From an uncultured Acidimicrobiia bacterium (GTDB lineage Bacteria > Actinomycetota > Acidimicrobiia > Spongiisociales > ZC4RG35): a stretch of 64,000 nucleotides of DNA. Where the stretch lies: assembly GCA_963744905.1 (NCBI GenBank), contig CAVUUV010000002.1, positions 261,382-325,381 of the forward strand, given 5' to 3'. Under the pieces are notes generated by a model. It was given only the letters and a program-made list of their open reading frames with translations, did no database searches and was not told the origin of the DNA. Shown piece after piece: positions 1-17,609 of this stretch. How positions within the stretch are numbered: position 1 is the first letter of the stretch; each line of letters begins with the position of its first letter. Position numbers and translations under genes: made by a program.

Positions 1-295
1 GGGACGACAGGAGGATCCTCACCAGGCCGGGCCTGGCCAACAAGACCGAAATTCCCCTCAGCCAACGCTCGAAGGCGAAGATGCGCCAGTTCAGAATCTC
101 TCCCGGGCGGCCCGACGCGAGGCGGGCGGCCAGGGCACCCAGACCCGACCGGGCCGCTACCTCCGGCGTCGACTCCGGTGAGCAAAGCACCGCCACCCCC
201 AGCTCGGACAGAGCAACCTGCAGAGCCCGGGCCACGGTGGACTTCCCCGCCCCCGGGGTTCCCATCAACTCCACCACTATGGGTTCATCGGTCAT
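1..295 (-). CDS. P-loop NTPase / kinase-like protein, N-terminal part (gene continues beyond window start)
   Basis: Minus-strand ATG at 295..293 overlaps the stop of the upstream sulfotransferase (ATGA). Translation MTDEPIVVELMGTPGAGKSTVARAL... contains a Walker A motif GTPGAGKST. Function inferred only from the motif and context. Confidence 0.45.
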   Translation of the reverse strand, partial: MTDEPIVVELMGTPGAGKSTVARALQVALSELGVAVLCSPESTPEVAARSGLGALAARLASGRPGEILNWRIFAFERWLRGISVLLARPGLVRILLSS

Positions 296-1224
296 GGCGA
301 GCGGTAACGGTCCAGAAACGAGAAGTCGGCCGTAGTCTCTGCCATCACCGTCCGGGCCGCCTCGGGCCAGTCCACCCTGTCCGACTCCCCCGGCCGGTCC
401 GCATTCACCAGGGCTGCGCACGCCCTCAGATAGTCCGGGTCGGCTTGCACACCCAGGAAACTGGCGACAGATTCCAAGGTCGGAACGGTTCGGGCCACGA
501 GATCCTCGTAATAGACCGTGGTCAGTCTCGGCTTCAGGAGTGCCCTCAGCATCTCGAGCCGCTCGCACTGCGACCTGTGGTCGTGGGCCGCGTCCACGGG
601 ATCGCGCCCGCTCCTCAAGACCATCGCTGCCACCGAGTCCGCCGGAGCCCGCACCATCTGGACGAACATCACCCGTCTCGGGGCCATTCGCTCGTCGAGT
701 AGGGCGATGCTGGCGGGCGATTCTCCAAGAATCCGCGTGGTCGGCCCCGCCCTGGACACACCTACCACGTGAGGCCGGCCCACACGACCCTGGTCCGATC
801 CCGCGATGGCGAGTGAGTAGCCACCATCGAGCCGTCGGGCTGTCACCCGGCCCTTCATCGCCTCCCGTCGGGACGACCGAGCCAGGACCCCGATAACCTC
901 GTCGGCCGTGAAACCGGCTTCGACCAGGTCCATGACATCCACTTCGTCACCGAACACCACATCAGGGTGGGCATCGAGCATTGCTCCCAGCAAGCTGCCT
1001 CCGCTCTTGGTATGGCCCAGCAGGACACACAGCGTTCCTACCGCCGTGAACCTGCCCGGATCGGCACTGTTGGCGGCCCGGGCCCGCCGCCGGCGTCGCC
1101 AGCGATCGACCGAGGCTACCGGCTCGCTCCGCCGCAATCGGCGCATAGGCTCGCTCTTCAACACCTTCCGGGCCGGCTTCGAGTTGAGGAGCGCCACCCA
1201 GGCCCGCTCCCTGGCGGACGTCAT
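292..1224 (-). CDS. Sulfotransferase family protein (paralog 1 of 4)
   Basis: Track ORF 292..1980 trimmed to the internal ATG at 1224, which overlaps the stop of the ligase gene (tcat = ATGA). Carries PAPS 5'-PSB-like LGHTKSGGSL and a 3'-PB-like region. Similar to Stf0/Sulfotransfer_3-type enzymes. Confidence 0.7.
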   Translation of the reverse strand: MTSARERAWVALLNSKPARKVLKSEPMRRLRRSEPVASVDRWRRRRRARAANSADPGRFTAVGTLCVLLGHTKSGGSLLGAMLDAHPDVVFGDEVDVMDLVEAGFTADEVIGVLARSSRREAMKGRVTARRLDGGYSLAIAGSDQGRVGRPHVVGVSRAGPTTRILGESPASIALLDERMAPRRVMFVQMVRAPADSVAAMVLRSGRDPVDAAHDHRSQCERLEMLRALLKPRLTTVYYEDLVARTVPTLESVASFLGVQADPDYLRACAALVNADRPGESDRVDWPEAARTVMAETTADFSFLDRYRSP

Positions 1225-2669
1225 GACTCCGCTGACATGGAGGACGGTTTCCGTGCCTTGTCCACCCCGCTGAAGGCATTGCCGATCAGTGCCAGACTCA
1301 ACCACCAGACAGCAAGGCCGACGCTGACCACCATGTTCGAGAACGAGCTGACGATGACGTGGCCGAGGATGACGAACCACAGGATGACCACCAGCTTCCT
1401 CCCGTACAGCCCGTTCCCCCGAAGGCGCGACAAGCCCTTGGGCGTCTTGGCCAGCCAGTAAAGGGCGGCCCCGAGGTAGGCGATCAGACCGACCAGTCCC
1501 TGCTCGGCGAGAATGGTAAGGAACAAATTGTGTGATGAGTGATCCTTGGTGGGAACGAACAGGTCTCCCACCCGCGACTGGAACAACGTGTCGTAGCGGT
1601 CGAAGTTGCCATATCCCCAACCGGTGACCGGCTTCTCCTCGAACATCCTCACCGAGGCGATCATCACCGGTAGACGACTGAGGGCGGTCGTCTCGGAGGC
1701 CGGAGAGTAGACCCTCTCCCTCAGATAGCTGGAGAGCCATCCAGAGCTGCCGATGGCGAGAAAGGCGACCACGGCCACCACCCCCGCCACCAGGATCACC
1801 CGGGCCGCATTCCGGTAGGCGAAGAAGACCCCTACCAATACCACGATGGCCGCCAGCCAACTCGCCCGGGAGAAGGTGGCGAAGGCCATCACCACTCCCA
1901 GGGTGAAGCCGGGCAGTCCCCAACGCCGAAGACTTCCCGACAACTGACGCGACAGGTGCAGTACCAGGGCGCCGGCCCACAGGGCCACGATGCCGAAGAC
2001 GTTGGCCTGGTCGAGCGACCCGGTAGTGCGTTCACCTACCCGGCCCAGCAGGCGATCCGGGAGAACCCCGGGGGCAAACCATTGAGCCAACCCGATCAAC
2101 GCCTGCGAGACGAGCACAAACATCAGAATGTAGGTGAACTTGCGCAACTCGGCACGCTTGGGGGGGACAAGGCGAACGAGCAGGTAGAGGATCATGGGGA
2201 CCCCTGCCCGGTCATACAGGTGCCTCAACTCGGCGCCTACGTCGTTGGAGAGGTACAGGATCGAAAGTGCCGTGACGACCAGGTATGCCGCCATCAGCAA
2301 CTCCGCCACGCCCAGCCTGGGCAGGCGGCGATCAGAGGCCCTGGCCATGCTGGAGGCGACCACGACCACCAGGGTGGCCAGTGGCGCCAACCTGTGCACC
2401 AGCCAGTAGGCCAACTTCAGGCTTCCCCCGTCTTCCAGTCCGGACATGAACGGGAGCACCAGCATCCACACACCCACGGTGATCAGTGGATAGCGATGAA
2501 CGACCAGAAACACCGGAACAACCAGCAACACCGCAGCCAACTCGAACCACATTCCACGGCTGACGGCGATGGCCGATACGATCGATCCCACCACCGCTAC
2601 CAGCAGCCACAGGAGTCGACCAGGCCAGCGCCTGATCCAGGGCAGCTGCGGGGCAAGCTCGGCGGTCAC
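1221..2669 (-). CDS. O-antigen ligase / Wzy_C-family polytopic membrane protein
   Basis: 482 aa, about 12 predicted TM helices. Wzy_C-like periplasmic loop motif WGYGNFDRYD...SSHNLFLTILAEQGLVGL. Confidence 0.7.
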   Translation of the reverse strand: MTAELAPQLPWIRRWPGRLLWLLVAVVGSIVSAIAVSRGMWFELAAVLLVVPVFLVVHRYPLITVGVWMLVLPFMSGLEDGGSLKLAYWLVHRLAPLATLVVVVASSMARASDRRLPRLGVAELLMAAYLVVTALSILYLSNDVGAELRHLYDRAGVPMILYLLVRLVPPKRAELRKFTYILMFVLVSQALIGLAQWFAPGVLPDRLLGRVGERTTGSLDQANVFGIVALWAGALVLHLSRQLSGSLRRWGLPGFTLGVVMAFATFSRASWLAAIVVLVGVFFAYRNAARVILVAGVVAVVAFLAIGSSGWLSSYLRERVYSPASETTALSRLPVMIASVRMFEEKPVTGWGYGNFDRYDTLFQSRVGDLFVPTKDHSSHNLFLTILAEQGLVGLIAYLGAALYWLAKTPKGLSRLRGNGLYGRKLVVILWFVILGHVIVSSFSNMVVSVGLAVWWLSLALIGNAFSGVDKARKPSSMSAES

Positions 2670-3670
2670 GTTCCTGTCTCCGAACGAACGAACCTATGGC
2701 TGGGAATCCGGCGTCCGACGCGATCCAGGACCCGATCCCTCACCTCCCACAGGTACATCCTGGCGCCCTCCAGGGGGACCACCACCATCGTGAACCACAA
2801 CCCGGCCAGCCGATTCTGCGAGGGCCGATCCGGCTCGTATCCCAGTCGCTGCATGGGACCGGAGACGGCGCGTTCGATGTAACGAACCTGTCCCTCACTC
2901 AAGACATCCCTAAATCGGCCTATCGAATCGGTGGTTATCGCTCCGGCCCGACGCCGTCCATACGAGCTGTTGCCCGTTTCGTCGAAATCGTCGGCACCCT
3001 GCATTGACAGCATCTCCGCGGTGTAGTCGACCCCGATGAACCCACACACAGTCTTCAAATGCCCTTCGGGGTCGGAAACCAGATCTTCATACCGAACCAG
3101 AAGATAGGAATCCGGCCAACGCACGGTGTTCTTCTCCGCCCGACGGACCGAGAACCGCCATTGCGCCACTCCCACACCGGCGCCGCCTCGCCGGCGCTCC
3201 CACCGCTTCTGCACCGACGCGTAGCGATCGCGGGGATCACGAATCATGTGAATGATCCGTGCCCCCGGGTAGGCTGCCAGGATCTGCTGGGCGTGGCGCT
3301 CCGTCATGAGCGACTTGTCTCCCCACCGGGGCTTTCCCACTCGATCGGCGAATTGGCGTTCCAACAGTTCGAACAGCCGGGGATAGCTAGAAGGCCCCGA
3401 TCGGAAATCTCGTCGCAGACGATCCCAGTCGATGTTCAACTTCACCAGGCGCTTGTAGCGGGACATCACATCGAGGCATCTATCCAGATTGCGATCATGG
3501 GAAAGATCGCCGTAGCGCCGGTAGAAGTACCTCCACAGGTTGGTCCGTCTGGTCATGGCGATCTCGGGATGAGATGAGAGCAGCGCATACATCAAGCTGG
3601 TTCCGGTACGCTCCAATCCGGCCACGAAGACTGGACCGGCCGGCCGCGTGGTTGACGTGCTTTCGGTCAT
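2666..3670 (-). CDS. Sulfotransferase family protein (paralog 2)
   Basis: Start ATG at 3670 overlaps the upstream stop (ATGA). Motifs GLERTGTSLMY (5'-PSB) and IHMIRDPRDRYAS (3'-PB, RDPRD). Confidence 0.75.
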   Translation of the reverse strand: MTESTSTTRPAGPVFVAGLERTGTSLMYALLSSHPEIAMTRRTNLWRYFYRRYGDLSHDRNLDRCLDVMSRYKRLVKLNIDWDRLRRDFRSGPSSYPRLFELLERQFADRVGKPRWGDKSLMTERHAQQILAAYPGARIIHMIRDPRDRYASVQKRWERRRGGAGVGVAQWRFSVRRAEKNTVRWPDSYLLVRYEDLVSDPEGHLKTVCGFIGVDYTAEMLSMQGADDFDETGNSSYGRRRAGAITTDSIGRFRDVLSEGQVRYIERAVSGPMQRLGYEPDRPSQNRLAGLWFTMVVVPLEGARMYLWEVRDRVLDRVGRRIPSHRFVRSETGT

Positions 3671-4530
3671 CGTGCTTGCGCAAACCGCACGCGGGTACGG
3701 AACACCGTTCGGTCGACCAATCCCGAGAGAAACGGCGGCGGGCCGGCCGCCGCCGCGGCATAGCCCAGATCTCTCATCTCTTCTGCAACCAGATCCTCCA
3801 GGACCGGAACGAACCACGCCGGCGGTGGCGACTCCTTGGAATCAGGGGCGATCTCCGGCGACCGTCCACCGGGTTGCGTTTCGAATCCGAGGATGTCGAC
3901 CACTCGGTCCAACACACCCGATGGATCATGGGTCAGCTGCTCCCAAGGCAAGACCCAATACCGGTCTCCGAAGCGATCCTGATTGACGATCGCCAAACGA
4001 GCCGACTGAGCCCAGGTGGCCAGATCCCATCCCCGTCGACCAATCCGCCCGGCGCGGCGGGAGAATCCCAGCAAATGACGGGGATCGCGTATGAGATGCA
4101 CCATACGGGCGTGGGGCAGGTCCGTCAGGAGCGAGGCGGCCAGGCGCTCCAAACCACGCAGCTGAACCACCTTCGCCCGCACCGCATCGACTTCCTGAAT
4201 GGCGGCGAACAACGACCCGTACGACAGCGGAGTGCCGGCGTTATCCAGATCCTCCGCTATGCGGAGGACATCGGCCGACGTCGACCCCACCGACCCGTCC
4301 TTACCCAAAGCGACGGCGCAGAGTGCCAGGTTGGACGGATGGACAAGATCTCCATAGCGTCCGTAATGGCGGGTCCAGAAGTACGCCTTCCGGATCACCT
4401 CGATTCCCGGTGTGCCCGCCAGCAGCCGCCCCAGTTCGGTCTTGCCCGAATGAGCCATGCCCGTGACGAACAGCGGACCGGCCTGCCCTAGATGCCCGAG
4501 ATGATCGCCCGACCTGCTCTCGGGAATCAT
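3667..4530 (-). CDS. Sulfotransferase family protein (paralog 3)
   Basis: Start ATG at 4530 overlaps the upstream stop (ATGA). Motifs GMAHSGKTELG and LIRDPRHLLGF. Confidence 0.65.
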   Translation of the reverse strand: MIPESRSGDHLGHLGQAGPLFVTGMAHSGKTELGRLLAGTPGIEVIRKAYFWTRHYGRYGDLVHPSNLALCAVALGKDGSVGSTSADVLRIAEDLDNAGTPLSYGSLFAAIQEVDAVRAKVVQLRGLERLAASLLTDLPHARMVHLIRDPRHLLGFSRRAGRIGRRGWDLATWAQSARLAIVNQDRFGDRYWVLPWEQLTHDPSGVLDRVVDILGFETQPGGRSPEIAPDSKESPPPAWFVPVLEDLVAEEMRDLGYAAAAAGPPPFLSGLVDRTVFRTRVRFAQAR

Positions 4531-5573
4531 GCCGCAGGCTCCACGATCATTCGCCGGCCTGGCTTCCTTCCCACCAGGCCGGGAAGATGCTGTTGAAGAG
4601 ACTCGGCAACCCTCCACGCCACCATCCGCGCCGTTTGATCCGGCCAGACCCCGAAGATGAACCGCACCCACTGACCGGCACTGAACTGGATGGGGTCCCT
4701 CCGGTAGCCGCGCTCGGCCATACCACGGCCGGCATGAAGGTCGATGAAGGCGCGCTCGAACCCATCGATCCGGTCCCGATGGAGCCCGATGTAGGAATCA
4801 GACAACAATTCGTCGCCGCCGTCTGATGAGAGGAGCCGATCGCGGTGGCGTGGCGCGCCTCGCATTTCGAGCATCTCGGGACGAAAATCCTCCTCCAGGA
4901 ATTCGCACACCGACCGAAGTGTCGCCTCGGTATCACGGATCAAATCCTCAAACCTCACCACCCGGTAACGATCCGGCCACCGCCGCTCGTTGGCCCGGGC
5001 CAGGCGATTGGAGTAATTCCAGCGGGCGACTGCACCCCCCGCCCGGCCTTTGCCGTCGGGCCACAGTGCCAGGGACGCTTCGTAGCGGTCCCTGGGATCA
5101 CGCACCATATGGACCACCCGGAGACCGCCGTAGGAGCGAAACAACTCGGGCGCATACCGCTCTATCAGACCCGTTTGAGCTCCCCACCGAGGCTTGCCTT
5201 CCCGTTCAGCATATTGACGGAGAAAGAGGCCGAACAACTGGGCATAGGTTCTCTCTCCGGCCAGGAAGCGGACGCGGATCTGATCGAAGTCGGGCTTCAA
5301 GAAGACGACGTGCTTGTAGCGACTCATCGCATCGAGGCAGCGGTCCAGATTGCCGTCGTCTCGCAGGTCCCCGTACTGCCGGTAGAAGTAGGTCCACATG
5401 TTCGACCCCACGGCCGGTATGGCGACATTGGGATGGGAGGCGAGAAAAGCGGCCATGGTGGTCTTGCCGCTTCGATCCAGCCCCCCGATGTAGATCGGGT
5501 CGCCCGAACCCGGGCCGACTACCGCCCGGCCGGCCCCCTCGAACAGAGGAGCGGGATCATGCCTCGACGGCAT
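4527..5573 (-). CDS. Sulfotransferase family protein (paralog 4)
   Basis: Motifs GLDRSGKTTMA and VHMVRDPRDRYEAS. Start taken at MPSRHDPAPLF (5573) to minimise overlap with the Wzz-like gene; M at 5621 is an alternative start. Confidence 0.7.
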   Translation of the reverse strand: MPSRHDPAPLFEGAGRAVVGPGSGDPIYIGGLDRSGKTTMAAFLASHPNVAIPAVGSNMWTYFYRQYGDLRDDGNLDRCLDAMSRYKHVVFLKPDFDQIRVRFLAGERTYAQLFGLFLRQYAEREGKPRWGAQTGLIERYAPELFRSYGGLRVVHMVRDPRDRYEASLALWPDGKGRAGGAVARWNYSNRLARANERRWPDRYRVVRFEDLIRDTEATLRSVCEFLEEDFRPEMLEMRGAPRHRDRLLSSDGGDELLSDSYIGLHRDRIDGFERAFIDLHAGRGMAERGYRRDPIQFSAGQWVRFIFGVWPDQTARMVAWRVAESLQQHLPGLVGRKPGRRMIVEPAA

Positions 5574-6573
5574 CGCTGGGCACACTCTCCAATCGATGAG
5601 AGTCGGTCGACGTGTATTCACGCACCTCTATCTCGACGTGAAGGGGCCTGGCCAGCTGCATGGTCTCGATCGAGGCCACCCAGTCTTCGAGCAACCGACG
5701 GCAGGCGTTTCCGTCTACCTCGGGGAAGATGGTCGACAGGGTGCGGGGCTCGGTTGCGCAGAGGACGTCCTGGGGCCGCAAAGCTTCCGACAGGAGGTCG
5801 CCGACGGCACGAATGGTGGCGCCTTCGACCGGTCGATCCTCGTCCTCGAGATCCTCGAGTTTCAATATCCCCACAGAGAAGGTGGATGGCGCCCCGTCGA
5901 GGCGGGCTATCTCTTCTCTCATCCTGAGCTGAAAGTAGTCGGCGTTGAACATCCCCGAGACGGGATCCAGGATCTCGAACGATGTCTTGCGGCCGGCAGC
6001 CCGCGAGAAGTAGTCGACCAGGAATGCCAGGACCCAACCGAGAAGGAAGCCAAACACGGCTCCGATCACGATGGTCAGCGGTTTGTTGGGCCCCGACGGT
6101 GAGTTCGGCGCCTGGGGAGGGTCGAGCGGTTGAAGCTCATAGGCATCGTGGAGAGCATCAACATAGGCGACGGTCTCGGCGCCGATTGCCTGTGCGAAGG
6201 CGAATGACTTGTCGGGATCGGTGCTCTCGACCGAGATCCGGATCATGTTGGTCCCAGTGACCACATCAGAGTTGACCCGTATCCCGCCCTTGGACTGTCC
6301 GACCTGTTCGGCGGCTCGGTCACGTACCAGATCACTGCGGGCTATGGCGGCATAAGTCGAGTTGATCTCGACACCTCTGTTCAGGGTGTTGAATGCCTGT
6401 ACGATCTCGTCGGCGGTCGAGGCGCGGGGACGGACGATGAGGGTGCCCCCGGACTGGTATACCCAGGGCTGTTGAGCCACGAAGGCGATGGTCAAGCCCA
6501 GGGTGAGCGAGAAGCACACCGCCACCAGGATCCAGTGATCCCGCAGGATCTTCAGGTACCGACGAATTTCCAT
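5557..6573 (-). CDS. Wzz/polysaccharide co-polymerase-like protein with C-terminal degenerate GGDEF-like cytoplasmic domain
   Basis: N-terminal YLKILRDHWILVAVCFSLTLGL (Wzz TM1), periplasmic segment, then second TM LTIVIGAVFGFLLGWVLAFLV. The C-terminal ~130 aa align with the GGDEF fold (DPVSGMFNADYF..., SVGILKLEDL, ...CATEPRTLSTIFP in place of RYGGEEF). Confidence 0.6.
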   Translation of the reverse strand: MEIRRYLKILRDHWILVAVCFSLTLGLTIAFVAQQPWVYQSGGTLIVRPRASTADEIVQAFNTLNRGVEINSTYAAIARSDLVRDRAAEQVGQSKGGIRVNSDVVTGTNMIRISVESTDPDKSFAFAQAIGAETVAYVDALHDAYELQPLDPPQAPNSPSGPNKPLTIVIGAVFGFLLGWVLAFLVDYFSRAAGRKTSFEILDPVSGMFNADYFQLRMREEIARLDGAPSTFSVGILKLEDLEDEDRPVEGATIRAVGDLLSEALRPQDVLCATEPRTLSTIFPEVDGNACRRLLEDWVASIETMQLARPLHVEIEVREYTSTDSHRLESVPSDAVEA

Positions 6574-6574
6574 T

Positions 6575-7816
6575 TCAGATACTCCCCTGATAGAACTTGC
6601 CGACTGCCATGGCTACTCGTGCGAGAGCCTCAACCGGCATCTCCGGATACATCGGAAGGGAGAGAATCCTCTGCGCCCCTTCCTCCGTCACCGGAAACGC
6701 CCCCCTCCGATAACCCAGCTCCCGGTGGGCCTCCTGAAGATGTACGGGCAGCGGATAGTGGATTCCCGTTGCCACCCGGTTCCGGCTCAGGTGCTCGATG
6801 AGCGCCTCCCGATCGTCCACCTCGACCACGAATAGATGGTATACGTGTTCGATCGCCGAGAACTCCGTCGGCAACTGAACGGGAAAGGCCGTCAACAGAT
6901 CTCGGTACACGGCGGCTGCCAATCGCCGGGAGGCGTTGGCTTCGTCGAGCCGGATGAGCTTGACCCGGAGAACGGCCGCCTGCAATGTGTCGAGGCGCCG
7001 GTTGAAACCCTTGACAGTGTGGTGGTATTTCACCTCCGACCCCAGGTTCCGCAGTAATCGGATCCGCCGAGCCAACCCGGCGTCGCTGGTCACCACCATC
7101 CCTCCGTCACCAAAGCCACCCAGGTTCTTGCTGGGATAGAAACTGAAGGCGGCAGCATCTCCCAGTGATCCGGCTCGCACGCCCTGGTGCCGTGCGCCGT
7201 GCGCCTGGCATGCATCCTCGATCAACGCCAGACCGTGCCGATGGGCGATCTCCGCCAGCCGACCCATGTCGGCCGGGCGCCCGTAGAGATGGACGGCGAT
7301 GACGGCCGCGGTCGATGGAGTTATCGCCGCTTCGACCTGTTCCGGATCCAGGTCGTAGGTAATTGGATCCACGTCTACCAGCACCGGCCGGGCACCGACC
7401 GCATCTATTGCGTTCACCGTGGCGATGAAGGTGTTGGCCGCGGTGATCACCTCGTCACCCGGGCCGATCCCCATTCCTCGCAGTATCAATTCCAGAGCCG
7501 AGAAGCCCGAGTCGACACCGATGCCGAACCCCGCCTCACAGAACGCGGCGAACTCGGACTCGAAGCGCGCCACCGCCTCCCCGAGCACGAAGTCACCCTT
7601 TTCGAGAACTGCCGCCATGGCCGCGTCGATCGCAGACTTAGATCGCTGGTATTCACCACGGAGGTCTACGAATGGCACCTCACGTTGTGGCTCCACCCGC
7701 AGCCCGGGCTGGTCTCTGGTTCGTAGGTCGATGACGATGCCGTCTGTCTCCTCCTCGTCTTCGGGGACGAGGAGGAGAAGTCCTTCGCCATCCATCTCCG
7801 GTTCCAACGCTGTCAT
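6575..7816 (-). CDS. DegT/DnrJ/EryC1/StrS-family PLP-dependent sugar aminotransferase
   Basis: Motifs ALIEDACQAHGA and FSFYPSKNLGGFGDGGMVVTSD (PLP lysine). N-terminal ~50 aa may be an over-extension. Confidence 0.85.
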   Translation of the reverse strand: MTALEPEMDGEGLLLLVPEDEEETDGIVIDLRTRDQPGLRVEPQREVPFVDLRGEYQRSKSAIDAAMAAVLEKGDFVLGEAVARFESEFAAFCEAGFGIGVDSGFSALELILRGMGIGPGDEVITAANTFIATVNAIDAVGARPVLVDVDPITYDLDPEQVEAAITPSTAAVIAVHLYGRPADMGRLAEIAHRHGLALIEDACQAHGARHQGVRAGSLGDAAAFSFYPSKNLGGFGDGGMVVTSDAGLARRIRLLRNLGSEVKYHHTVKGFNRRLDTLQAAVLRVKLIRLDEANASRRLAAAVYRDLLTAFPVQLPTEFSAIEHVYHLFVVEVDDREALIEHLSRNRVATGIHYPLPVHLQEAHRELGYRRGAFPVTEEGAQRILSLPMYPEMPVEALARVAMAVGKFYQGSI

Positions 7817-7825
7817 GACCGCCTC

Positions 7826-8899
7826 CTATCGAGCCGCTTGGCCGCTGGTTGATTCGACCAGATCCCGAGCCGACATGGTGTTCACGTCCATCGGGGCGCC
7901 GCTGTCAGCCAGCGACTTCTGTGCGGCCTCGATGACCTGCACGACTCTCAGGCCGGAAGCGCCATCGGAAGTCGGCGCTTTCCCGGTACGAATCGATTCG
8001 ATGAACTGGCGGCATTCGACTCGAAGCGGTTCCTCGAAATGAATGTGTGGGCTGACCACACTTCCATAGTGGTAGGCGAATTGGAAGTCTCCATAGGTGT
8101 CCGTCCGGCGGATGGTGGTCACGCGTTTGTCGAATATGCGCAGCTTCTCCATCGGTTCCACATCGTCATAGACCACCATCTTCTCGGAACCGACCACGGT
8201 TATGCGCCGCGTCTTCAGAGGATCCAGCCAACTCATCCTCGTATTGGCAGTCATGCCGTTGGGATAGTTGAGGGTGAGATAAGCCACATCCGCCACGTCC
8301 TCGTGCACACAGGCCGCACCTCTGGCAGACACGTCGGAGGGCATCGTCCCGGTCAGATAGTTCAGGATCGAGATGTCGTGGGGAGCCAGATCCCAGATGA
8401 CATTGAGGGTGGGATGAAACAAGCCGAGGCCGACGCGCACACCATCGATGTAGAGGATTCGGCCCAGCTCCCCGCTGTCGATGATTCCCTTGAGGTCCCT
8501 CACCGCCTGGTTGTACTCGAAAGTGTGACCCACCATCAGGATTCTGTCGGCGTGCTCGGCCTTGATCGCAAGATCGGCCGCGGTCGTGGCGGACACGGTC
8601 AGTGGCTTCTCCACCAGCACGTGATGTCCCGACATGAGGAAGTCGGAGGCGATGGCGTGGTGGGTCTCGGGAGGCGTGCAGATTGCCACCGCGTCCAGAT
8701 CCAGTTCTAGGAGTTCCCGATAGTCGGTCGTGAAGACATCCACGGTCCGATAGCGCTCCGCCACCCGCTCGAGCAGGTTGCGGTTGAGATCGGCGATTCC
8801 GACCAGGTCGACATCCGGCATCTCCCAGAAATTGCGAATGATGTTCGGGCCCCAGTAGCCGCTACCTACGACGGCTGCCCGTACGCGTTGGCTTGTCAA
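7826..8899 (-). CDS. Gfo/Idh/MocA-family NAD(P)-dependent sugar dehydrogenase (WbpB-like)
   Basis: N-terminal Rossmann AAVVGSGYWGPNIIRNF and a Gfo/Idh/MocA C-terminal domain. TTG start at 8899 overlaps the upstream stop (TTGA). Confidence 0.8.
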   Translation of the reverse strand: MTSQRVRAAVVGSGYWGPNIIRNFWEMPDVDLVGIADLNRNLLERVAERYRTVDVFTTDYRELLELDLDAVAICTPPETHHAIASDFLMSGHHVLVEKPLTVSATTAADLAIKAEHADRILMVGHTFEYNQAVRDLKGIIDSGELGRILYIDGVRVGLGLFHPTLNVIWDLAPHDISILNYLTGTMPSDVSARGAACVHEDVADVAYLTLNYPNGMTANTRMSWLDPLKTRRITVVGSEKMVVYDDVEPMEKLRIFDKRVTTIRRTDTYGDFQFAYHYGSVVSPHIHFEEPLRVECRQFIESIRTGKAPTSDGASGLRVVQVIEAAQKSLADSGAPMDVNTMSARDLVESTSGQAAR

Positions 8900-9585
8900 C
8901 CCGCTCCCTCCCCTGCAAATACGGCCGGAAGAGTGAGGAACACAATCCGGAGATCGAACACGAGGCTCTGTCGAGCGATATATTCCAGATCGAGATCGAT
9001 CATCTCTTCAAATGGAGTGGTGGCCCTGCCCCTTATCTGCCACCAGCCGGTCAGACCCTGGGGGGTGGCGAACCGGCGCATGTGGCGCTCCCCGTACAGA
9101 GGAACCTCATAGTCGATGGGCGGCCGGGGCCCAACCAGGCTCATGTCTCCGCGAACCACATTCCACAGCTGGGGAAGCTCATCCAGACTGAAAGCCCTGA
9201 GAAACCGTCCGACACGGGTGATCCGGCTGTCTCGTCCCAGCTTGTACGACCCCTCTGTCCGCATCGATTCGGCGGCCGAGACCGTTACGTCGTCACCCTG
9301 GATGTAGGCAGCGATGTATTCGCGATGGACCGACTGGTCGGCTTGCCACCGCATGGTCCGGAACTTGTAGAGCGTGAAGGGTCGGACCCCCCACGCATCG
9401 GCCCTCCGCGTCAGAGGCCGAGACCCGATCCGCGTCTGGCGAAAGAACACCGGACCGGGACTGTCTAGCCGTATCAATAGGGCCACAACCGCCAATACCG
9501 GCAGGGCCAAGACAAGCAAGATCGACCCGACGCCGATATCGAATCCGCGCTTGGCCAGGTAATAACCCGAGGAACGGTCACCCAT
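8896..9585 (-). CDS. Bacterial sugar transferase (undecaprenyl-phosphate sugar phosphotransferase, PglC/WbaP C-domain type)
   Basis: Motifs [10 protein letters not shown]...LYKFRTMR...[21 protein letters not shown]. Start placed at [16 protein letters not shown] (9585); the track ORF extends to 9684. Confidence 0.8.
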
Positions 9586-9996
9586 GCGGGGAACGCGGAT
9601 ATCTCTCCAGTCGTGCGAGATGGTCACGAGTGACCACCCGCGCCGTGTTCGCCCCCACGTCCTGCAACCCAATCCCCGCGCCAAGAGCGCACGAGGTAAG
9701 CGTCGACCCCAACTCCCAATTCAAGCCTCCCGTTTACAGCGTCCCTGCGGTCGCTTTCTGCCCACCTGCAGGATACCGGGAGTTCACGGAAAGTGAAGGA
9801 CCTAGGGACCCATTGTCGGGAGAGTTGTACCGCCATCGGGGGAGTCGAAGCGGCAAGCGACCGTCGTCGCACCATCCACCCGGTCGGTTTGGCAAGAGGT
9901 GGGGCTCCGACCGTTCAAAGATCTCGGTCATCCGGTGCAAGAGAAACCCTCTCTTCCCGGATCCCGACCCTCCCCGCTCACGAGGCGGGGAGGGTC

Positions 9997-10072
9997 TGGT
10001 AGCCCCGACCGGATTCGAACCGGCGTTACCGGCTTGAGAGGCCGGCGTCCTGGGCCACTAGACGACGGGGCC
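9997..10072 (-). tRNA. tRNA-Glu (anticodon CUC)
   Basis: Minus-strand sequence GGCCCCGTCGTCTAGTGG...CCGGC-CTCTCAA-GCCGG...GGTTCGAATCC...TCGGGGCTACCA. Cloverleaf folds by hand with U33 and A37; CCA is encoded. Confidence 0.85.
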
Positions 10073-10101
10073 AAAGGAAGGCCTCGAATTCGGGGGCCTT
10101 C

Positions 10102-10173
10102 GCTCGGGGGGAAGGACTCGAACCCTCAACGACAGGACCAGAACCTGCTGTGTTACCAATTACACCACCCCCG
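10102..10173 (-). tRNA. tRNA-Gln (anticodon CUG)
   Basis: Minus-strand TCGGGGG-TG-GTGT-AATTGGTA-ACAC-A-GCAGG-TTCTGGT-CCTGT-CGTT-GAGGG-TTCGAGT-CCTTC-CCCCCGA-G. All stems pair; 72 nt; CCA not encoded. Confidence 0.8.
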
Positions 10174-10409
10174 AACGCGACTCGGATAGGACGAGCGCGG
10201 GGAGATGGGCAGTCTAGCGCCCCGCTGTCGGTCCCGTCACACCGACCATCCCCGACCGAACCCCGCTACACGCAACCGACGGGGGGAGGCCCCAACCAGA
10301 ATGAACCACCCGAGTGGCCGATCGGCGCCGTGATCGGGAGCGCCTGATCAGGGCATGAATCGCCCAACCATCAACAGGTCGAGGTCGATACTCCGCGAGG
10401 GGATCTCAC

Positions 10410-13400
10410 TCAGGGATGAGACCTGAAGTAGAAATCGTCGATCCAGAGACTGTCGATCACAGGCTCGAACTTGGAGCTGTCGGCGTCGGTTGCTCGGACC
10501 AGAACCGTCCCCGACACCCCGGTCGGCAGGTCGAACGTCTGGTAGGTGCCGTCGTCGGTGGTCTTCGTCACCCGCATCATGTCCAGCCAGGATGACCCGC
10601 CGTCGGTCGAATACGAGAACTGGAAATCCTCCGCTCCGGAGTGGTGAGCCTGGAGGAAGAAGGTGACTGTGCTGCCACCCGTGACCGAGAATGTCCATTG
10701 CTGCTCCAGACGAGTCCTCTTCCCGCCTCCATAGGCTTCCTCGCTGATGACGAGATAATCACCGTCGTCGGCGAAGGTGCTTGAGAGATCGCCGGCAACC
10801 ACCGATCCGTAGACGGTGGTCTGGGAGGAGGCATCGTCATCGGTGGCTACCTGGTCGTTGTCCACGATGATCACACTGGCATCGGAGGGAAAGCCGATCT
10901 GGTAGTTGGCATCAGTGCTCAAAGTGATGACCACCGATTCGTTTCCCTCCGCAGCGGTGTCGTCAACCGCTGCCACCGGAACGAGAGCCGTCGACTGACC
11001 TGCCCCGAGAGTCATCGAACCCGACAAAGGCCCATAGTCGTCACCGGGGGTAGCCGTGCCGGAAACGGTGTAGAAGACGGTCAGATCGGCGGAAACGTCA
11101 TTGCGGGAGATCGTGAACCCGCCATCGGCTCCGCCCTCGTAGGCGAAAGGCCCGGTTGCGTCGACCGACACCTCCGGAAGAGGGGGCTGGGGGTTCACCG
11201 TCTTTATCGCCATGTAGTCAACGAAGAGCGTATCGGTCGACCCGTTGCCGATGGTGCGGTCGGAGTCGATGGCTCGCACGATGACCGTTCCGCTGATCGT
11301 GGGTGGCAGATCGGCCCGATAAGTGGTGTCGGAGCCGGCCGACACCACCACCAACGGTTCGAAACTCACGCCACCATCGGTCGAATACGAGAACTCGAAG
11401 TCGTCACCCTCCGAGTTGGCGGTGCGTCGGGCTTCGAGCACGAAGTTGATGCTGTCCCCGCGCTCGACGTCGAAGGTCCAGCGATGCTCGAGCCTGCTCA
11501 CCCTGCGATTGCGTGGACCACCGGTCTGCTCCTCGGTTAGTTGCTCATACACATCGTCGGTGGCGGTGGTATCTGCCAGGCTCCCGCTCACCGAGCCGAG
11601 CAGGGTCTGCTCGGATCCGGCAAACTGGTCGAGAGTGGTCTCTCCGATGGAGACCGTGACGGTGGCGACGTTCGACAAATCGGTCCCATCCGAGGCCTGA
11701 TAGGTGAAACTGTCCGAGCCGGAGAACCCGGCCGTCGGGGTGTAAGTAACCGTCCCGTCCGTCTCCAACGTCACCGACCCGTTGGCCGGCGTCGACAGAT
11801 TCGTCACCGACAACACATCCCCATCCGGATCACTGTCATTGGCCAACACATCCACATTCACCGGCTGACCCTTGGTAGTAGAAGCCGAATCGTCCACCGC
11901 CACCGGAGCCCGATTGGCAACCGTCACCGACACCGTCGCCACATTCGACAAATCGGTCCCATCGGACGCCTGATAGGTGAAACTGTCCGAGCCGGAGAAC
12001 CCGGCCGTCGGGGTGTAAGTAACCGTCCCGTCCGTCTCCACCGTCACCGACCCGTTGGCCGGCGTCGACAGATTCGTCACCGACAACACATCCCCATCCG
12101 GATCACTGTCATTGGCCAACACATCCACATTCACCGGCTGACCCTTGGTAGTAGAAGCCGAATCGTCCACCGCCACCGGAGCCTGATTGGCGACCGTCAC
12201 CGACACCGTCGCCAGGTTGGAGGGGTTGTTCCCGTCCGATGCCTGGTAGGTGAAGGTATCCACCCCGGAGAATCCCCCCGCCGGCGTATACGTCACGGTC
12301 TCATCCACCTCCACCACCACCGAGCCATTGGAAGGGGCGGAGGCGATCTGGACCGTCAAGGGATCACTTTCAGGATCCGTGTCGTTGGCCAACACATCCA
12401 CATTGACCGGCTGACCCTTGGTAGTAGAAGCCGAATCGTCCGCCGCCACCGGAGCCTGATTGGCGACCGTCACCGACACCGTCGCCACATTCGACAAATC
12501 GAGTCCCATCCGAAGCCTGATACGTGAAACTGTCCGAACCGGAGAACCCGGCCGTCGGGGTGTAAGTAACCGTCCCGTCCGTCTCCACCGTCACCGACCC
12601 GTTGGCCGGCGTCGACAGATTCGTCACCGACAACACATCCCCATCCGGATCACTGTCATTGGCCAACACATCCACATTCACCGGCTGACCCTTGGTGGTA
12701 GAAGCCGAATCATCCACCGCCACCGGAGCCTGATTGGCAACCGTCACCGACACCGTCGCCACATTCGACAAATCGGTCCCATCCGACGCCTGATAGGTGA
12801 AACTGTCCGAGCCGGAGAACCCGGCCGTCGGGGTGTAAGTAACCGTCCCGTCCGTCTCCACCGTCACCGACCCGTTGGCCGGCGTCGACAGATTCGTCAC
12901 CGACAACACGTCCCCATCCGCATCATTGTCATTGGCCAACACATCCACATTCACCGGCTGACCCTTGGTGGTAGAAGCCGAATCGTCCACCGCCACCGGA
13001 GCCTGATTAGGGGCCGGATCCACCGTAATCGTCACCGTGGCCGTGTCAGAAGCCACACCGTCAGAGGCGTCATAGGTGAACGAATCCACACCCGAGAACC
13101 CGGCATCAGGCGTATAGGTCACCGTCCTGTCCGTCTTCACCGTCACCGACCCGTTGGCCGGAGTCGACAGATTCGTCACCGACAACACGTCCCCATCCGG
13201 ATCACTGTCATTGGCCAGCACATCCACATTCACCGGCTGACCCTCGGGGGTCGACGCTGTGTCATCGACCGCCACCGGAGCCCGATTGGCAACCGTCACC
13301 GACACCGTCGCCACATTCGACACATCGGTCCCATCCGACGCCTGATACGTGAAGGTATCCACACCCGAGAACCCCGACCCTGGCGTGTAAGTCACCGTCC

Positions 13401-16400
13401 CGTCCGTCTCCACCGTCACCGACCCGTTGGCCGGCGTCGACAAATTCGTCACCGACAACACATCCCCATCCGGATCACTGTCGTTGGCCAACACATCCAC
13501 ATTCACCGGTTGACCGGCATCCGTCGACGTACTGTCGTCGACCGCCACCGGGGCCTGATTGGCAACCGTCACCGACACCGTCGCCACATTCGACAAATCG
13601 GTCCCATCCGAGGCCTGATAGGTGAAACTGTCCGAGCCGGAGAACCCGGCCGTCGGGGTGTAAGTAACCGTCCCGTCCGTCTCCACCGTCACCGACCCGT
13701 TGACCGGCGTCGACAGATTCGTCACCGACAACGCATCCCCATCCGGATCACTGTCATTGGCCAACACATCCACATTCACCGGCTGACCCTTGGTAGTAGA
13801 AGCCGAATCGTCCACCGCCACCGGAGCCTGATTGGCGACCGTCACCGACACCGTCGCCACATTCGACAAATCGGTCCCATCGGACGCCTGATAGGTGAAA
13901 CTGAATCCGAGCCGGAGAACCCGGCCGTCGGGGTGTAAGTAACCGTCCCGTCCGTCTCCAACGTCACCGAACCGTTGGCCGGCGTCGACAGATTCGTCAC
14001 CGACAACACATCCCCATCCGGATCACTGTCATTGGCCAACACATCCACATTCACCGGCTGACCCTTGGTAGTAGAAGCCGAATCGTCCACCGCCACCGGA
14101 GCCTGATTGGCAACCGTCACCGACACCGTCGCCACATTCGACAAATCGGTCCCATCCGAGGCCTGATAGGTGAAACTGTCCGAGCCGGAGAACCCGGCCG
14201 TCGGGGTGTAAGTAACCGTCCCGTCCGTCTCCACCGTCACCGACCCGTTGGCCGGCGTCGACAGATTCGTCACCGACAACACATCCCCATCCGGATCGCT
14301 GTCGTTGGCCAACACATCCACATTGACCGGCTGACCCTTGGTAGTAGAAGCCGAATCGTCCACCGCCACCGGAGCCTGATTGGCGGTGCCCGCGGTGACG
14401 GTCACGTTGAAGCTGGTTGAGTCGGTGAGGGCGACGGGCTTGGGCGTCAGGGCGACCGTGAAGGCGTTACGCGTATTCTCGCCGGTGCTGGCCGACCCGC
14501 TGGCGACCGCAGTCCCCACCGGTCCGGCAGTGGATTGGACCTGGTCACCCGCCAGGACACGGTTCTTCCCGGTTCCTGAACTACCCACTTGTTCCGACCA
14601 CCGTTCGGTTACCCCGGTGGGCACGGTATTGAATCCCACGCCGGGATCAGTGGCGCTCGCCCCTCTCCAACCCCACAGACGCAATACCCGGGCGTTGTCG
14701 ACCGTCGTGTTCAAGTCGGGGGCTTCGAGGGTCGCTATGTCCTCGGCCGAGGCAGCCCAGGCGTCGATGGGGTTCTCGGGGTCCACACCCACGTATGCCC
14801 CGATTCCTCCAGCCATACGGCCTTCGGCGTATCCCTGATCGAAGCTGTACGAAGTGGGTTCGGATGAACCGGCGATCTTGTAATAGACGCTCTGGTGGCC
14901 GTTGGAGGTGCTGGGAATCGTGGCCAGCTCGGTCCATCCAGCCGGCGGGGTCATGGATGGGAGGTCGCCCCGGTAGCGCACCTGCGCCAGCAACAGATCA
15001 CCGGCCTGGACCCCGTCCGGTTTGGGGATCGTAAGCACCGAGCCCGAGGTGCTGGTGTCGATAGCCGACGCCGCAGACCGGAAAGCCGGCGCACCGGCGT
15101 CGGTCGACGCTCCGTCGGCGACCGTCACGGTCACAGGCCCATACGTTCCCGCGTCTCCCACTGTCGGGGAGAAGGTCATCTCCAAGGTGGCGGCGTCGAA
15201 CGAGCCGAACGAGGGAAGCCCATCGACGGTGACCGTCAGCGGGTCACCGTCAGGGTCGGAGGCCGAGACCGCCACCACGGCAGTCTCGCCCTCTGCCACT
15301 GTGACGTCACTGATCGGATCGACCGTTGGGGGAGAGTTGGGTGGCCCGTTGACGGTCACGATCACGTCGTCCGAGCCAGACAGCTCTCCGTCAGAGGCGG
15401 TCAGCTCCAGGGTATAAGTGCCTTCCGTGTCGAAGCTGGCCGTGGTAGAGGCGGAATTGGGGTCTGCGAACGTGACCTGACCGGGGCCGGTCACCATGGA
15501 CCAGGTTTGGGTGACCGAACCCGAAGGCAGCCCGTCATCCGTAACAGAACCGGACAGAGTCACATCCGACGGTAGGGTGATGGTCTGGTCGGGCCCGGCG
15601 TCGACGACCGGCGCCAGGTTGCCGGGGGGATCGGCGAGATTGGGGGCCGAAAGCTCGAACACCTTGCCGTCGTTCTCGTTCGAATTGGCTCCATTGTCGA
15701 CCGCCCGGTCGGCGATCCACAGATCCATCCCCGAGCTGTTGGTGGCGGGGGCAAGACCCAGGCCGGAAACGTGGGTCATGGCCGACACACTGATGTTGAT
15801 CGTGCGAATCAAGGTCCCGTCGAGGCCGATCTCAAACACCTTGTGCACACTGCTGACCGGATTCCGGGCACCCACATAGAGCGACCCGCGCGAGGGGGCG
15901 GCCACCAGTCCCTCCCAGTCCGTCGGTCCCAGTCCGGAGATGTCGAAATGGGAAACCGAGTCGTTTCCGTTGCCGAATATCCCGTCAGTCGGGTCGACCC
16001 GGTAGATCTCGCTGTCCACCCCGCTGAGAATGAACAGGTCACCGGTGGCCGTGTCGAAGGTGGGATCTTCGGTATCGCTGGCATTGAAAGGCGGCCCGCC
16101 GGTGTCGATGAACGACACCGCATCATCGCCGGTTCCGAAGGCTCCATCCCCTCCGGGGCGAATCACGAACACGCCCTGAGCGCTGTCGTCTGACACGAAC
16201 AGGGTGTTGGACCCGGGGTCGTAACCGACGCCGGTTGGTTCCTTGGAGAAACCGACAGAGCCTCCGAAGGTGGCCGCGGTTGGGCCCCAGAAGGTGCCTG
16301 TGCCCACCACGGTGCCGGTCCTCAGCGCCCGCCACATGTTCACGTTGTGCCAACCCGCACCGGTCGTCTCGTCCACCTCGGAGTCCACCACGACGAGTTG

Positions 16401-17378
16401 GTCCACCCCCGGCAACCACGTCACTCCCGAGGGGTCGGGTGCCGCCGGGTCCCAGGCCGAAGTGTCGATCGTCTGGACCAGCGTGGCGTAGTCCTCTGTC
16501 GCAGTCACTGCGGCCACCTGAACCAGGGAGACCTCCGTTATCCCACCGAGGGAAGTGGCTGTCCCTGAGTCCGCGACGTAGAGGTTCTGGATCGAGGGGG
16601 CATCGGTCGAGTCCGTGCTGGGGGCAAACGTCATGTCCTCGGGCGACATCAGACCCACCGAGGAAAGGTCGTAGGAGACCGCCACCTCTCCATTCGAGTC
16701 GAGCCCGTCGAGACGGTTGCCGTCGCTCGACAAGACGTACAGCCGATCATCTGACGGATTGAAGGCGATCTGGCCCGCATCGACTCCGCTCGGCAGGGCG
16801 AGCGAGCCGGATTGGAGGCCGGTGGACAAATCTGTGACCACAACGTCATGACCACTTGCGGACAGCGAATACAGCACCCCGCTATCAGGATCCACCGTCC
16901 GGCCGATCGCCGAGACGCTGCCGGACTCCGGGATGATTTGAACCGCCGGGGTCCTCGATTCCAGGTCGCTCCCTTGCATCACCACGGCGTCCCGATCCCC
17001 GAACAGAAGCAGTTCATCCTCAATCGGGTCGAAAGCTGCCGTTTCCAGTGCCGAGATAGCCGCCACTACTGAGGTTCCGATCAGCTTGGAGCGCCGATCG
17101 AGTCGAACCAGCGCCGTCTCATTGCCCTTTCGCCCTCCGACGACGAATTGACTGCGCGATGGGTCATATGCCAGGGCAGTGGGACGAGCGATACCGACTT
17201 CGTCCGTCCAGACGGTGCGTACGAGCCGGCCGATCAGGGGAGTTGAAATCTGCCCGGCCGCCTCAGTGCGGGCGGATGACGTGGCGCCGACAGCCAGGGC
17301 TGCTTGCGACGGCATGAGACTGAACAACATGCCCATGAGCGCGACGATGACAACAAAACGCCGCCCAGAAGAACCCAA
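10410..17378 (-). CDS. Giant secreted repeat/adhesin-like protein (PKD + ~10 cadherin-like 95-aa repeats + Calx-beta + duplicated C-terminal domain), interrupted by two compensating frameshifts
   Basis: Three track ORFs (13842..17552, 12370..13869, 10410..12509) encode contiguous, homologous repeat sequence. ORFs 1 and 3 share a frame and ORF 2 is offset. Candidate TTG start at ~17378 sits 6 nt after GGAGG and is followed by a signal-peptide-like GSSGRRFVVIVALMGMLFSLMPSQAALA. A PKD-like segment GPDQTITLPSDVTLSGSV...TYTLELTASDG and a Calx-beta-like segment DYGPLSGSMTLGAGQSTALVPVAAVDDTAAEGNESVVITL are present. Confidence 0.6.
11650..14430 (-). repeat. Tandem ~285-bp (95-codon) near-identical coding repeats (cadherin-like VANQAPVAVDDSASTTKGQPVNVDVLANDSDPDGD... 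units), ~10 copies
   Basis: Directly visible as near-identical DNA periodicity; inter-copy identity mostly >90%. Confidence 0.85.
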
Positions 17379-17609
17379 AATCCAGCCTCCCACCGACTGC
17401 CCGTCTCTCGATCCTGACGGACGATAACACCCGACGCCCCCCGGGCAATGGTCTCCGGGACCCATCCTCGAGGGGATCAGGCGGAACCTCGGAGCGAGGA
17501 TCGGCCGAGCGCCGGTCGCCAAGCTGTCGGAGCGGCGGCGGGTGGCCGGCACGCCCGGGGCCAGCCCGCCTCGGGACGGGGTAATCCCCTCTCCTCCACC
17601 CGCGTAGCT

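Follow-up and report, generated by a model that had tools for sequence, protein, structure and literature searches.

Few bacterial genera have sulfated polysaccharides that are chemically documented. Such polymers have been stated to be essentially confined to cyanobacteria (PMC8205485, PMC13390465), and a 2024 review counts six bacterial genera that have them (PMC11625862). The closest characterized system to the locus described here is the synechan (xss) cluster, found on plasmid pSYSM of Synechocystis sp. PCC 6803 (Maeda et al. 2021, PMC8205485); synechan was chemically shown to be sulfated, whereas the product of the present locus is predicted from its genes. Two other clusters are similar in outline. 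The wps-1 cluster of Actinoplanes missouriensis (PMC13390465, 2026), which belongs to the same phylum as our organism, is a predicted Wzx/Wzy-dependent system with two sulfotransferases and predicted sulfation of the product, and the capsule region of Vibrio sp. KMM 8419 (PMC11641403) has three sulfotransferases amid polysaccharide genes and specifies a polymer known to be sulfated. The locus examined here lies at one end of a 64,000-nucleotide stretch of DNA, hereafter the window, from an uncultured Acidimicrobiia bacterium (GenBank assembly GCA_963744905.1, contig CAVUUV010000002.1, positions 261,382 to 325,381). Positions 1-9627 of the window are the first three quarters of a 13-gene operon of about 13.3 kb, which encodes five sulfotransferases, ST_A to ST_E, among genes for glycan assembly. 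Acidimicrobiia are a widespread, poorly studied actinobacterial class.

We think that the operon probably (at a rough probability of 0.7) assembles a Wzy-polymerized, multiply sulfated amino-sugar polysaccharide for the cell surface or the matrix. The role in glycan synthesis is argued by the presence of Bac_transf, Wzy_C, polysaccharide co-polymerase (PCP) and family 4 glycosyltransferase (GT4) genes, to which related loci add the Wzx flippase, more glycosyltransferases and a UDP-sugar 6-dehydrogenase. The sulfotransferases are recognized by Pfam profile searches, which also supplied the other family scores in Table 1: four matches to Sulfotransfer_3 above its curated gathering cut-off of 27 bits, all within less than 6 kb, cannot be a matter of chance, so the sulfotransferase cluster is real. 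In the window, the open reading frame (ORF) listing and translation give ten consecutive minus-strand genes in an unbroken run down to position 1. Their junctions, read from the sequence in operon order, are -4, +9, +1, -17, -4, -4, -4, -4 and -4 nt, and 4-nt overlaps (ATGA or GTGA) thus account for six of the nine. The Wzy_C gene overlaps both neighbouring sulfotransferase genes in this way (GTGA, ATGA), ST_B overlaps ST_A by ATGA, and the dehydrogenase gene overlaps the upstream PglC-like gene by 4 nt. The PglC-like gene may start with GTG at 9627, as called in the near-identical contig L003, or alternatively with ATG at 9585.

An earlier, sequence-only reading of this DNA had described much of the arrangement. 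Its PglC-like transferase, its pair of dehydrogenase and DegT aminotransferase, and its Wzy_C protein placed between sulfotransferases were all recovered, by Pfam and by coordinates, and its overlaps of 0-4 nt between genes are nearly right, apart from the junctions of +9, +1 and -17 nt. It also proposed four paralogous sulfotransferases with retained binding motifs for 3'-phosphoadenosine 5'-phosphosulfate (PAPS). Alignment bears out the motifs in all four ORFs within the window, and all four proteins score above the cut-off, but the complete set consists of five genes of three subtypes, and ST_D is no close paralogue of the others.

The rest of the operon is carried by contig L005, which matches window 1-1075 at 99.9% identity and on which the continuation genes are likewise joined by ATGA overlaps; its fifth sulfotransferase, ST_E, has precomputed matches to PF13469 and PF00685. 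Proteins identical or nearly identical to those of the window occur in an NCBI metagenome-assembled genome annotated as Acidimicrobiia (GCA_049579045.1) and in Logan assemblies.

Table 1. Genes of the operon in order of transcription, followed by other features of the window; bits are profile scores
Feature	Position in window	Strand	Remarks
PglC-like priming transferase	8896..9627	-	Bac_transf 193 bits; first gene of the operon
Gfo/Idh/MocA dehydrogenase	7826..8899	-	GFO_IDH_MocA 79 bits, plus C-terminal domains
DegT/DnrJ/EryC1-family sugar aminotransferase, pyridoxal phosphate-dependent	6575..7816	-	DegT 382.6 bits
PCP fused to degenerate GGDEF	5557..6573	-	Wzz 21.9 bits and GNVR 20.1 bits, both below cut-off
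Sulfotransferase ST_A, 348 aa	4527..5573	-	Sulfotransfer_3 76.5 bits
Sulfotransferase ST_B, 287 aa	3667..4530	-	Sulfotransfer_3 41.9 bits
Sulfotransferase ST_C, 334 aa	2666..3670	-	Sulfotransfer_3 112.9 bits, Sulfotransfer_1 42 bits
Wzy_C-family polytopic membrane protein	1221..2669	-	Wzy_C 69.7 bits, cut-off 31.7
Sulfotransferase ST_D, 310 aa	292..1224	-	Sulfotransfer_3 47.9 bits
P-loop NTPase, 260 aa	1..295	-	First 98 codons, Walker A GTPGAGKST; runs off the window, complete on L005
APH-family kinase, 349 aa			On L005
GT4 glycosyltransferase, 378 aa			On L005
Sulfotransferase ST_E, 321 aa			On L005
tRNA-Glu(CTC) and tRNA-Gln(CTG)	9997-10174	-	Between adhesin and first gene of the operon
Cadherin/Big_9/PKD giant surface adhesin	10410-17552	-	Directly upstream of the operon
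Adhesin repeat	11671-14384		About 9.9 copies of 273 nt (91 aa)
ABC-2 transporter pair	19230-21742
TadE/G-like genes	35144, 38802, 43015		Near the GC dip
GC dip	38-40 kb		0.575, against about 0.64 elsewhere
ISL3-family transposase	40464-41849		Adjoins the GC dip

On sequence comparison, the five sulfotransferases form three subtypes, and ST_D stands far apart from the other four proteins. ST_A represents a subtype with the signatures GKT and RWGxQ, ST_C a subtype with GT[ST] and RWGDKS, and ST_D a subtype resembling tyrosylprotein sulfotransferases (TPSTs); ST_B is a divergent, fast-evolving member of the GKT subtype. Identity is 44% between ST_A and ST_C, 45% between ST_C and ST_E and 35% between ST_A and ST_E, and ST_B shares about 30% identity with all three. 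ST_D can be aligned with ST_A and ST_C in partial stretches at 21-32% identity and with ST_E over a 30-residue stretch only; its match to ST_B is not significant. Each protein has a 5'-phosphosulfate-binding motif (RSGKT in ST_A, HSGKT in ST_B, RTGTS in ST_C, KSGGS in ST_D and RSGTT in ST_E) and a 3'-phosphate-binding motif (RDPRD in ST_A, ST_C and ST_E, RDPRH in ST_B and RAPAD in ST_D), and both PAPS motifs are conserved inside each orthologue group across five loci. The longer form of the P-loop motif is GLDRSGKTT in ST_A and GMAHSGKTE in ST_B, the latter with the RWGDKS segment deleted. None of the five proteins has a signal peptide or a membrane segment, as would be expected if they work in the cytoplasm, the compartment in which PAPS is at hand.

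The top matches of ST_C in PDB are the sulfotransferase domain of olefin synthase (4gox, 2.6e-8), TPSTs, and the sulfotransferase of CurM. The fold was checked with a structure model for ST_D alone among the five. The AlphaFold2 (AF2) model of this protein has a mean predicted local distance difference test score (pLDDT) of 91.7 and includes a structured, helical N-terminal extension of 60 residues; all 44 Foldseek matches at E ≤1e-3 are sulfotransferases, with TM-scores of 0.4-0.5, and among them are TPST2 (2.6e-7), 4gox, the CurM sulfotransferase, 3-OST and Stf9. In an alignment of 50 ST_D homologues, G70, K73, S74, G75, R192 and P194 are invariant and D93, E94 and D196 are conserved in at least 90% of sequences; D93 and E94 align with E98 and E99 of TPST2, the nearest solved structure to ST_D. 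ST_D gave only a weak match in Geobacteraceae when GTDB species genomes were scanned, so that the species has no representative among them, and no relative of it was found on any PLSDB plasmid.

The GKT subtype has its own pattern of lysine residues. A HMMER search with ST_A retrieved 7097 representatives at E ≤1e-3; the best 150 were scanned for lysine positions, and both motifs could be located in 65 sulfotransferase domains. P-loop G-K-T is combined with mid-domain RWGxQ in 39 of these domains and P-loop G-T-[ST] with mid-domain RWGDK in 14; no domain has lysine at both positions or threonine together with glutamine, and 12 have other mid-domain residues, all these counts being phylogenetically non-independent. 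The covariation, in which ST_A and ST_B stand on one side and ST_C and ST_E on the other, suggests that the active-site lysine has been relocated and that its position sets a subclass of Sulfotransfer_3 apart. Since the P-loop and mid-domain lysines covary, the GKT subtype (ST_A and ST_B) would be a functional class, with P-loops that are no sign of decay. Several relatives of ST_A are single proteins in which two to four sulfotransferase domains follow one another in tandem, all of them having a P-loop (for example, P0161 of 1298 aa, P0146 of 674 aa, P0195 and P0276), which indicates that the joint action of several such enzymes recurs in the family.

The same gene order is seen in metagenome contigs in which ST_D is progressively less similar to that of the window (76% identity in L012, 55% in L007, 42% in L010 and 39% in L011). 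The common order is priming transferase, Gfo/Idh/MocA dehydrogenase, DegT, PCP, in some loci Wzx, the sulfotransferase block, Wzy, ST_D, P-loop protein, APH kinase, GT4 and ST_E. In L010 and L011, a flippase of the Polysacc_synt/MatE type is found between the PCP gene and the sulfotransferase block, and in L008/L009:5842-10004 a flippase takes the place of the three-sulfotransferase block, so that ST_D and ST_E are the only sulfotransferases kept. The block of ST_A, ST_B and ST_C therefore looks like a variable module that can be gained or lost, with ST_D and ST_E as the core; ST_D is present in every variant of the cluster. Related loci continue with extra GT4 enzymes, the UDP-sugar 6-dehydrogenase and an Acetyltransf_6 protein. 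Every gene is under purifying selection, ST_B being the least constrained: relative to the orthologues in L012, dN/dS is 0.08-0.27 for every gene (0.09 for both ST_A and ST_C) except ST_B, for which it is 0.41.

The behavior of ST_B makes it a real possibility, though not the likelier one, that the operon does make a sulfated glycan but that only some of its five sulfotransferases are active, with ST_B non-catalytic or decaying and with fewer sulfates in the product than the gene count would give. ST_B is 57% identical to its orthologue in L012, compared with about 80% identity and a dN/dS of about 0.1 in the neighboring genes; it also has the lowest Pfam score of the set (41.9 bits), lacks the RWGDKS segment, and ends its 3'-phosphate-binding motif differently from one orthologue to another (RDPRH, RDPRQ or RDPRS). 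On the other hand, wherever the three-gene block is present, ST_B keeps its place and an intact reading frame; it also has the P-loop HSGKT and the R-D-P-R core, and a dN/dS of 0.41 still amounts to constraint.

The remaining genes outline the pathway to which the sulfotransferases would be attached. The PglC-like transferase is small and monotopic, with one N-terminal hydrophobic helix (residues 36-54 by hydropathy), and matches the NCBIfam profile EPS_sugtrans at 254 bits only over the C-terminal, catalytic part of that profile. The best NCBIfam match of the Gfo/Idh/MocA protein is UDP-N-acetylglucosamine 3-dehydrogenase, at 210 bits against an equivalog cut-off of 450; the protein is probably an NAD-dependent sugar-nucleotide dehydrogenase, acting on position 3 of a UDP-N-acetylhexosamine (UDP-HexNAc). 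The DegT aminotransferase, with a dN/dS of 0.10 relative to L012, reaches no NCBIfam equivalog cut-off. Taken together, the pair is consistent with synthesis of a 3-amino sugar. WbpB/WbpE and GnnA/GnnB are pairs of UDP-GlcNAc(A) 3-dehydrogenase and aminotransferase, in which, as here, a Gfo/Idh/MocA oxidoreductase adjoins a DegT aminotransferase, and the UDP-sugar 6-dehydrogenase of related loci is a further point of likeness; the scores in our case are below the equivalog cut-offs, and the operon has no N-acetyltransferase of the WbpD type.

The Wzy_C protein has about 12 hydrophobic segments by hydropathy and is most likely the repeat-unit polymerase. The same family includes ligases and protein O-oligosaccharyltransferases, and the NCBIfam matches of the protein are to 'O-glycosylation ligase' (40.8 bits), RfaL (34.3 bits) and TfpM (21.4 bits), which could be taken to mean that a sulfated oligosaccharide or short polymer is put onto protein by a PglL/TfpM-type O-oligosaccharyltransferase, the target being an S-layer or SLH protein or the giant adhesin, in place of a polysaccharide that is free or bound to the wall. 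Such an arrangement would go well with the cadherin/Big_9 surface protein directly upstream, with the beta-helix (L005) and SLH (L007) proteins downstream of the fifth sulfotransferase gene, and with the resemblance of ST_D to TPSTs above all. We nevertheless regard it as unlikely: the NCBIfam matches are all far below the cut-offs, the conserved chain-length co-polymerase has no role in the transfer of single units, the adhesin is not conserved beside the cluster in L007 or L010, and related loci have a full set of Wzx, Wzy and PCP.

It is very improbable that the sulfotransferases leave the glycan alone and modify lipids, small metabolites or tyrosine residues of proteins, being found in the operon for co-regulation only. 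In favor of this, their nearest solved structures (the polyketide-pathway sulfotransferases of CurM and olefin synthase, and TPSTs) are not carbohydrate enzymes, acceptor specificity is unpredictable from sequence, and the PAPS-supply genes are not linked. Against it, the window and the related loci have no polyketide synthase (PKS), nonribosomal peptide synthetase (NRPS) or lipid-synthesis genes, the sulfotransferase genes alternate with those for Wzy and GT4 by 4-nt overlaps and are kept so in distant relatives, homology extends to XssE, which resides inside the synechan polysaccharide cluster, and the carbohydrate sulfotransferase NodH also falls under PF13469 (PMC11625862). The grounds on which the sequence-only reading would have abandoned its own proposal were failure to match sulfotransferase profiles, loss of PAPS-binding residues, or a small-molecule context; the profile matches and the residues are there, and the PKS/NRPS context was rejected, the flanks in the 64-kb window and in the related loci being made of glycan-assembly and housekeeping genes.

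The fourth gene of the operon had been noticed as a Wzz-like co-polymerase. Its topology and model matches agree with a PCP, but a second domain, a degenerate GGDEF fused to it, had been missed. Two transmembrane helices (residues 15-33 and 168-186 by hydropathy) flank an outer domain of about 135 residues and are followed by the cytoplasmic, degenerate GGDEF domain at about residues 195-325. A family profile built from 20 aligned homologues matches the structures of DgcR (6zxm, 4e-16) and PleD (2e-8); in the AF2 model (pLDDT 81.5), the C-terminal half resembles diguanylate cyclases (Foldseek, 7e-9 and weaker) and the N-terminal half matches KpsE (4e-7) and Wzc (1e-6). Orthologues of the protein carry precomputed Pfam GGDEF matches. 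The catalytic motif is lost, since the place of DgcR's GGEEF is taken by EPRTL in the protein of the window and by GDGTL in the family consensus, and the metal-binding segment DxD...GH is shortened. The RxxD inhibitory site (I-site) is kept: RPQD, at residues 266-269 and five residues upstream of the motif, aligns with RKSD of DgcR, and in the set of 20 homologues both R266 and D269 have a conservation of 90% or more.

Loss of the catalytic motif in a GGDEF fold that keeps RxxD is the signature of the cyclic di-GMP (c-di-GMP) receptors PelD, PssE and YdaK, and the PCP-GGDEF fusion is thus a candidate c-di-GMP receptor by its motifs. Like these proteins, it is membrane-anchored and encoded in a polysaccharide operon; unlike them, it combines the GGDEF domain with a Wzz/PCP-type co-polymerase from a Wzy-dependent pathway, and the domain stands where Wzc-type PCPs have their tyrosine kinase. 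In a full-text literature search, no title or abstract was found to mention a PCP-GGDEF fusion, which is a weak sign of novelty.

The P-loop protein could not be assigned to a family by Pfam, NCBIfam or PDB searches, Pfam giving only weak AAA and APS_kinase matches that stem from the Walker A motif, and the APH protein has no informative match in PDB or NCBIfam. We did not adopt the idea that the P-loop protein is a divergent adenosine 5'-phosphosulfate (APS) kinase, for which the weak APS_kinase match at Walker A is the sole support. In a distant relative (L010:10900-12726), a single protein of 608 aa unites the P-loop and APH parts, neither of which matches a characterized family, while in the lineage of the window they are encoded by separate, ATGA-coupled genes; the fusion indicates that the two functions are linked. 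The P-loop gene of L008/L009 looks truncated (126 or 225 aa).

Gene content, motifs, folds, synteny and selection were established directly, and from them we infer substrates, order of steps, site of sulfation and regulation as follows. The dehydrogenase and the DegT aminotransferase would convert UDP-HexNAc to a 3-amino sugar nucleotide, and the PglC-like transferase would load the first sugar phosphate onto undecaprenyl phosphate. The GT4 enzyme, probably together with glycosyltransferases encoded elsewhere, would extend the repeat unit. The five cytoplasmic sulfotransferases may each sulfate a different position of the lipid-linked unit at the cytoplasmic face of the membrane, with PAPS presumably made elsewhere in the genome. 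The P-loop/APH kinase pair might add a phosphate or activate a substrate, which is the weakest step of the scheme. A Wzx flippase, encoded in-cluster in related loci and presumably elsewhere here, would move the unit outward, where the Wzy_C protein would polymerize it while the PCP sets chain length or gates polymerization. The degenerate GGDEF domain of the PCP, facing the cytoplasm, may bind c-di-GMP at the RxxD site.

Several observations weigh against the proposed sulfated polysaccharide. The organism is known only from metagenomes, and the sulfated product is predicted from genes alone. Acceptor specificity is not readable from sequence, and the Wzy_C family is, as said, functionally mixed. 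A catalytic base was sought in ST_A, ST_B, ST_C and ST_E, and none was identified; the position of the catalytic glutamate of TPST2 and the CurM sulfotransferase is occupied by arginine or threonine in ST_C. ST_B evolves fast and is devoid of the RWGDKS segment. This version of the operon has one non-priming glycosyltransferase, and it would be an extreme case for a very short repeat unit to carry five sulfates; some of the sulfotransferases may thus be alternatives to one another, regulators or inactive. Finally, glycosyltransferases, a flippase and PAPS-supply genes had been expected just beyond the start of the window. One GT4 gene is indeed there, and so are the APH kinase and ST_E, but the flippase and cysC/cysDN are absent from the next 6.6 kb: a Wzx flippase was found neither in window 1-64000 nor in the 6.6 kb of L005 beyond it nor in L007, and the PAPS-synthesis genes cysC/cysDN were found neither in the 64-kb window and the 6.6 kb beyond nor, in five related loci, in the 10 kb to each side of ST_D.

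Export by an ABC transporter, through the ABC-2 pair of the window, was set aside, as this pair is not beside the cluster in L007, L008, L010 and L011. Outside the operon, the other 54 kb of the window contain the giant adhesin, two tRNAs, the ABC-2 transporter, an ISL3 transposase, Tad-pilus genes, succinate dehydrogenase, and genes of NAD, TCA-cycle and purine metabolism. The two tRNA genes mark the upstream boundary of the operon. The search for a sigma-70-like promoter in the leader of about 370 nt that precedes the operon gave none, and window 1-20000 contains no riboswitch or other Rfam family besides the two tRNAs. The adhesin is represented in the window by three overlapping ORFs (699, 499 and 1236 aa), implying two frameshifts or assembly errors, and in the short-read contig L003 by one ORF of 1577 aa with fewer repeats. 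At the other end of the operon, ST_E is followed on L005 by a convergent gene for an acidic-repeat protein of 437 aa and then by a right-handed beta-helix protein (Pfam Beta_helix; L005:6185-7724); in L007, a 668-aa SLH-domain protein (L007:15022-17028) stands just after the fifth sulfotransferase gene. Either of the two could be a wall-anchored enzyme of polymer processing. Farther away in the window, the combination of low GC content and transposase at 38000-41849 may mark a mobile insertion in the Tad-pilus region.

A bolder version of the polysaccharide proposal is that a clade of Acidimicrobiia makes a hypersulfated, glycosaminoglycan-like polymer whose polymerization is gated directly by c-di-GMP through the PCP-GGDEF protein. 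We find this rather unlikely as a whole. Such a polymer would have several O-sulfates per short unit, and its free 3-amino group might be N-sulfated, the latter suggested by the lack of an N-acetyltransferase in the operon. If true, gating of the co-polymerase by c-di-GMP would give Wzy-dependent pathways a control point that has not been described before, and Actinomycetota would have their first demonstrated case of a heavily sulfated polysaccharide. The more general proposal has uses of its own. Sulfated polysaccharides such as heparin and carrageenan are valued biomaterials, and the operon provides a set of candidate polysaccharide sulfotransferases for heterologous expression. It also offers a hypothesis on the composition of part of the sulfated matrix in environmental biofilms, and the PCP-GGDEF fusion suggests that c-di-GMP could act on Wzy-dependent synthesis at the co-polymerase, a new connection that can be tested.

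Comparison with the known systems shows what is shared and what is not. Synechan is made, as we propose for the product of this operon, by a Wzx/Wzy-type cluster in which sulfotransferase genes are scattered among those for glycosyltransferases, Wzy and PCP, and XssE, which was found by a tblastn search of plasmids, is encoded directly beside the synechan Wzy gene, as are ST_C and ST_D here. Alignments with XssE have 23-28% identity (2e-23 for ST_E, 25% and 2e-20 for ST_C, 24.7% and 1e-17 for ST_A, 1.5e-6 for ST_D), and those with XssA reach 2e-5 to 7e-6 at best; the relation to XssE appears to be one of distant homology only, at an identity too low to infer the same acceptor. The synechan cluster has two sulfotransferases and eight glycosyltransferases, compared with five sulfotransferases and two transferases in our operon. 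It belongs to a diderm cyanobacterium, is plasmid-borne, and includes an outer membrane polysaccharide export (OPX) protein and the regulators XssS, XssR and XssQ, whereas the present operon is chromosomal and comes from Acidimicrobiia; it has no Wzx gene, and adds the 3-amino-sugar pair, the P-loop/APH pair and the PCP-GGDEF fusion. No counterparts of XssS, XssR or XssQ adjoin it, the neighbors being the tRNAs and adhesin on one side and the acidic-repeat and beta-helix proteins on the other; the only regulator-like gene found in the window encodes a TPR/LuxR-type protein about 48 kb away, and the regulatory candidate within the operon is the PCP-GGDEF protein.

The wps-1 cluster has a kinase-like protein, WpsI, that parallels the APH kinase; by description, it differs in having sulfotransferases of other families, a methyltransferase, a GH26 hydrolase and a link to sporangium formation. 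The capsule region of Vibrio sp. KMM 8419 spans 80 genes, uses the ABC-transporter route, includes cysNDC and has its sulfotransferases dispersed, in contrast to the single coupled operon without cysNDC seen here. With two to three sulfotransferases in known clusters, and with two to four sulfotransferase domains fused in relatives of ST_A, the earlier description of the locus as highly unusual was overstated, although a 13-gene operon with five of these genes still ranks high among those that we found described. Sulfotransferases within polysaccharide clusters are already known, and the logic of the pathway is that of the Wzx/Wzy scheme with tailoring enzymes; what is new is the density of five sulfotransferases of three subtypes in a coupled operon, the Acidimicrobiia host, the P-loop/APH module, and the fusion of a PCP with a degenerate GGDEF domain.

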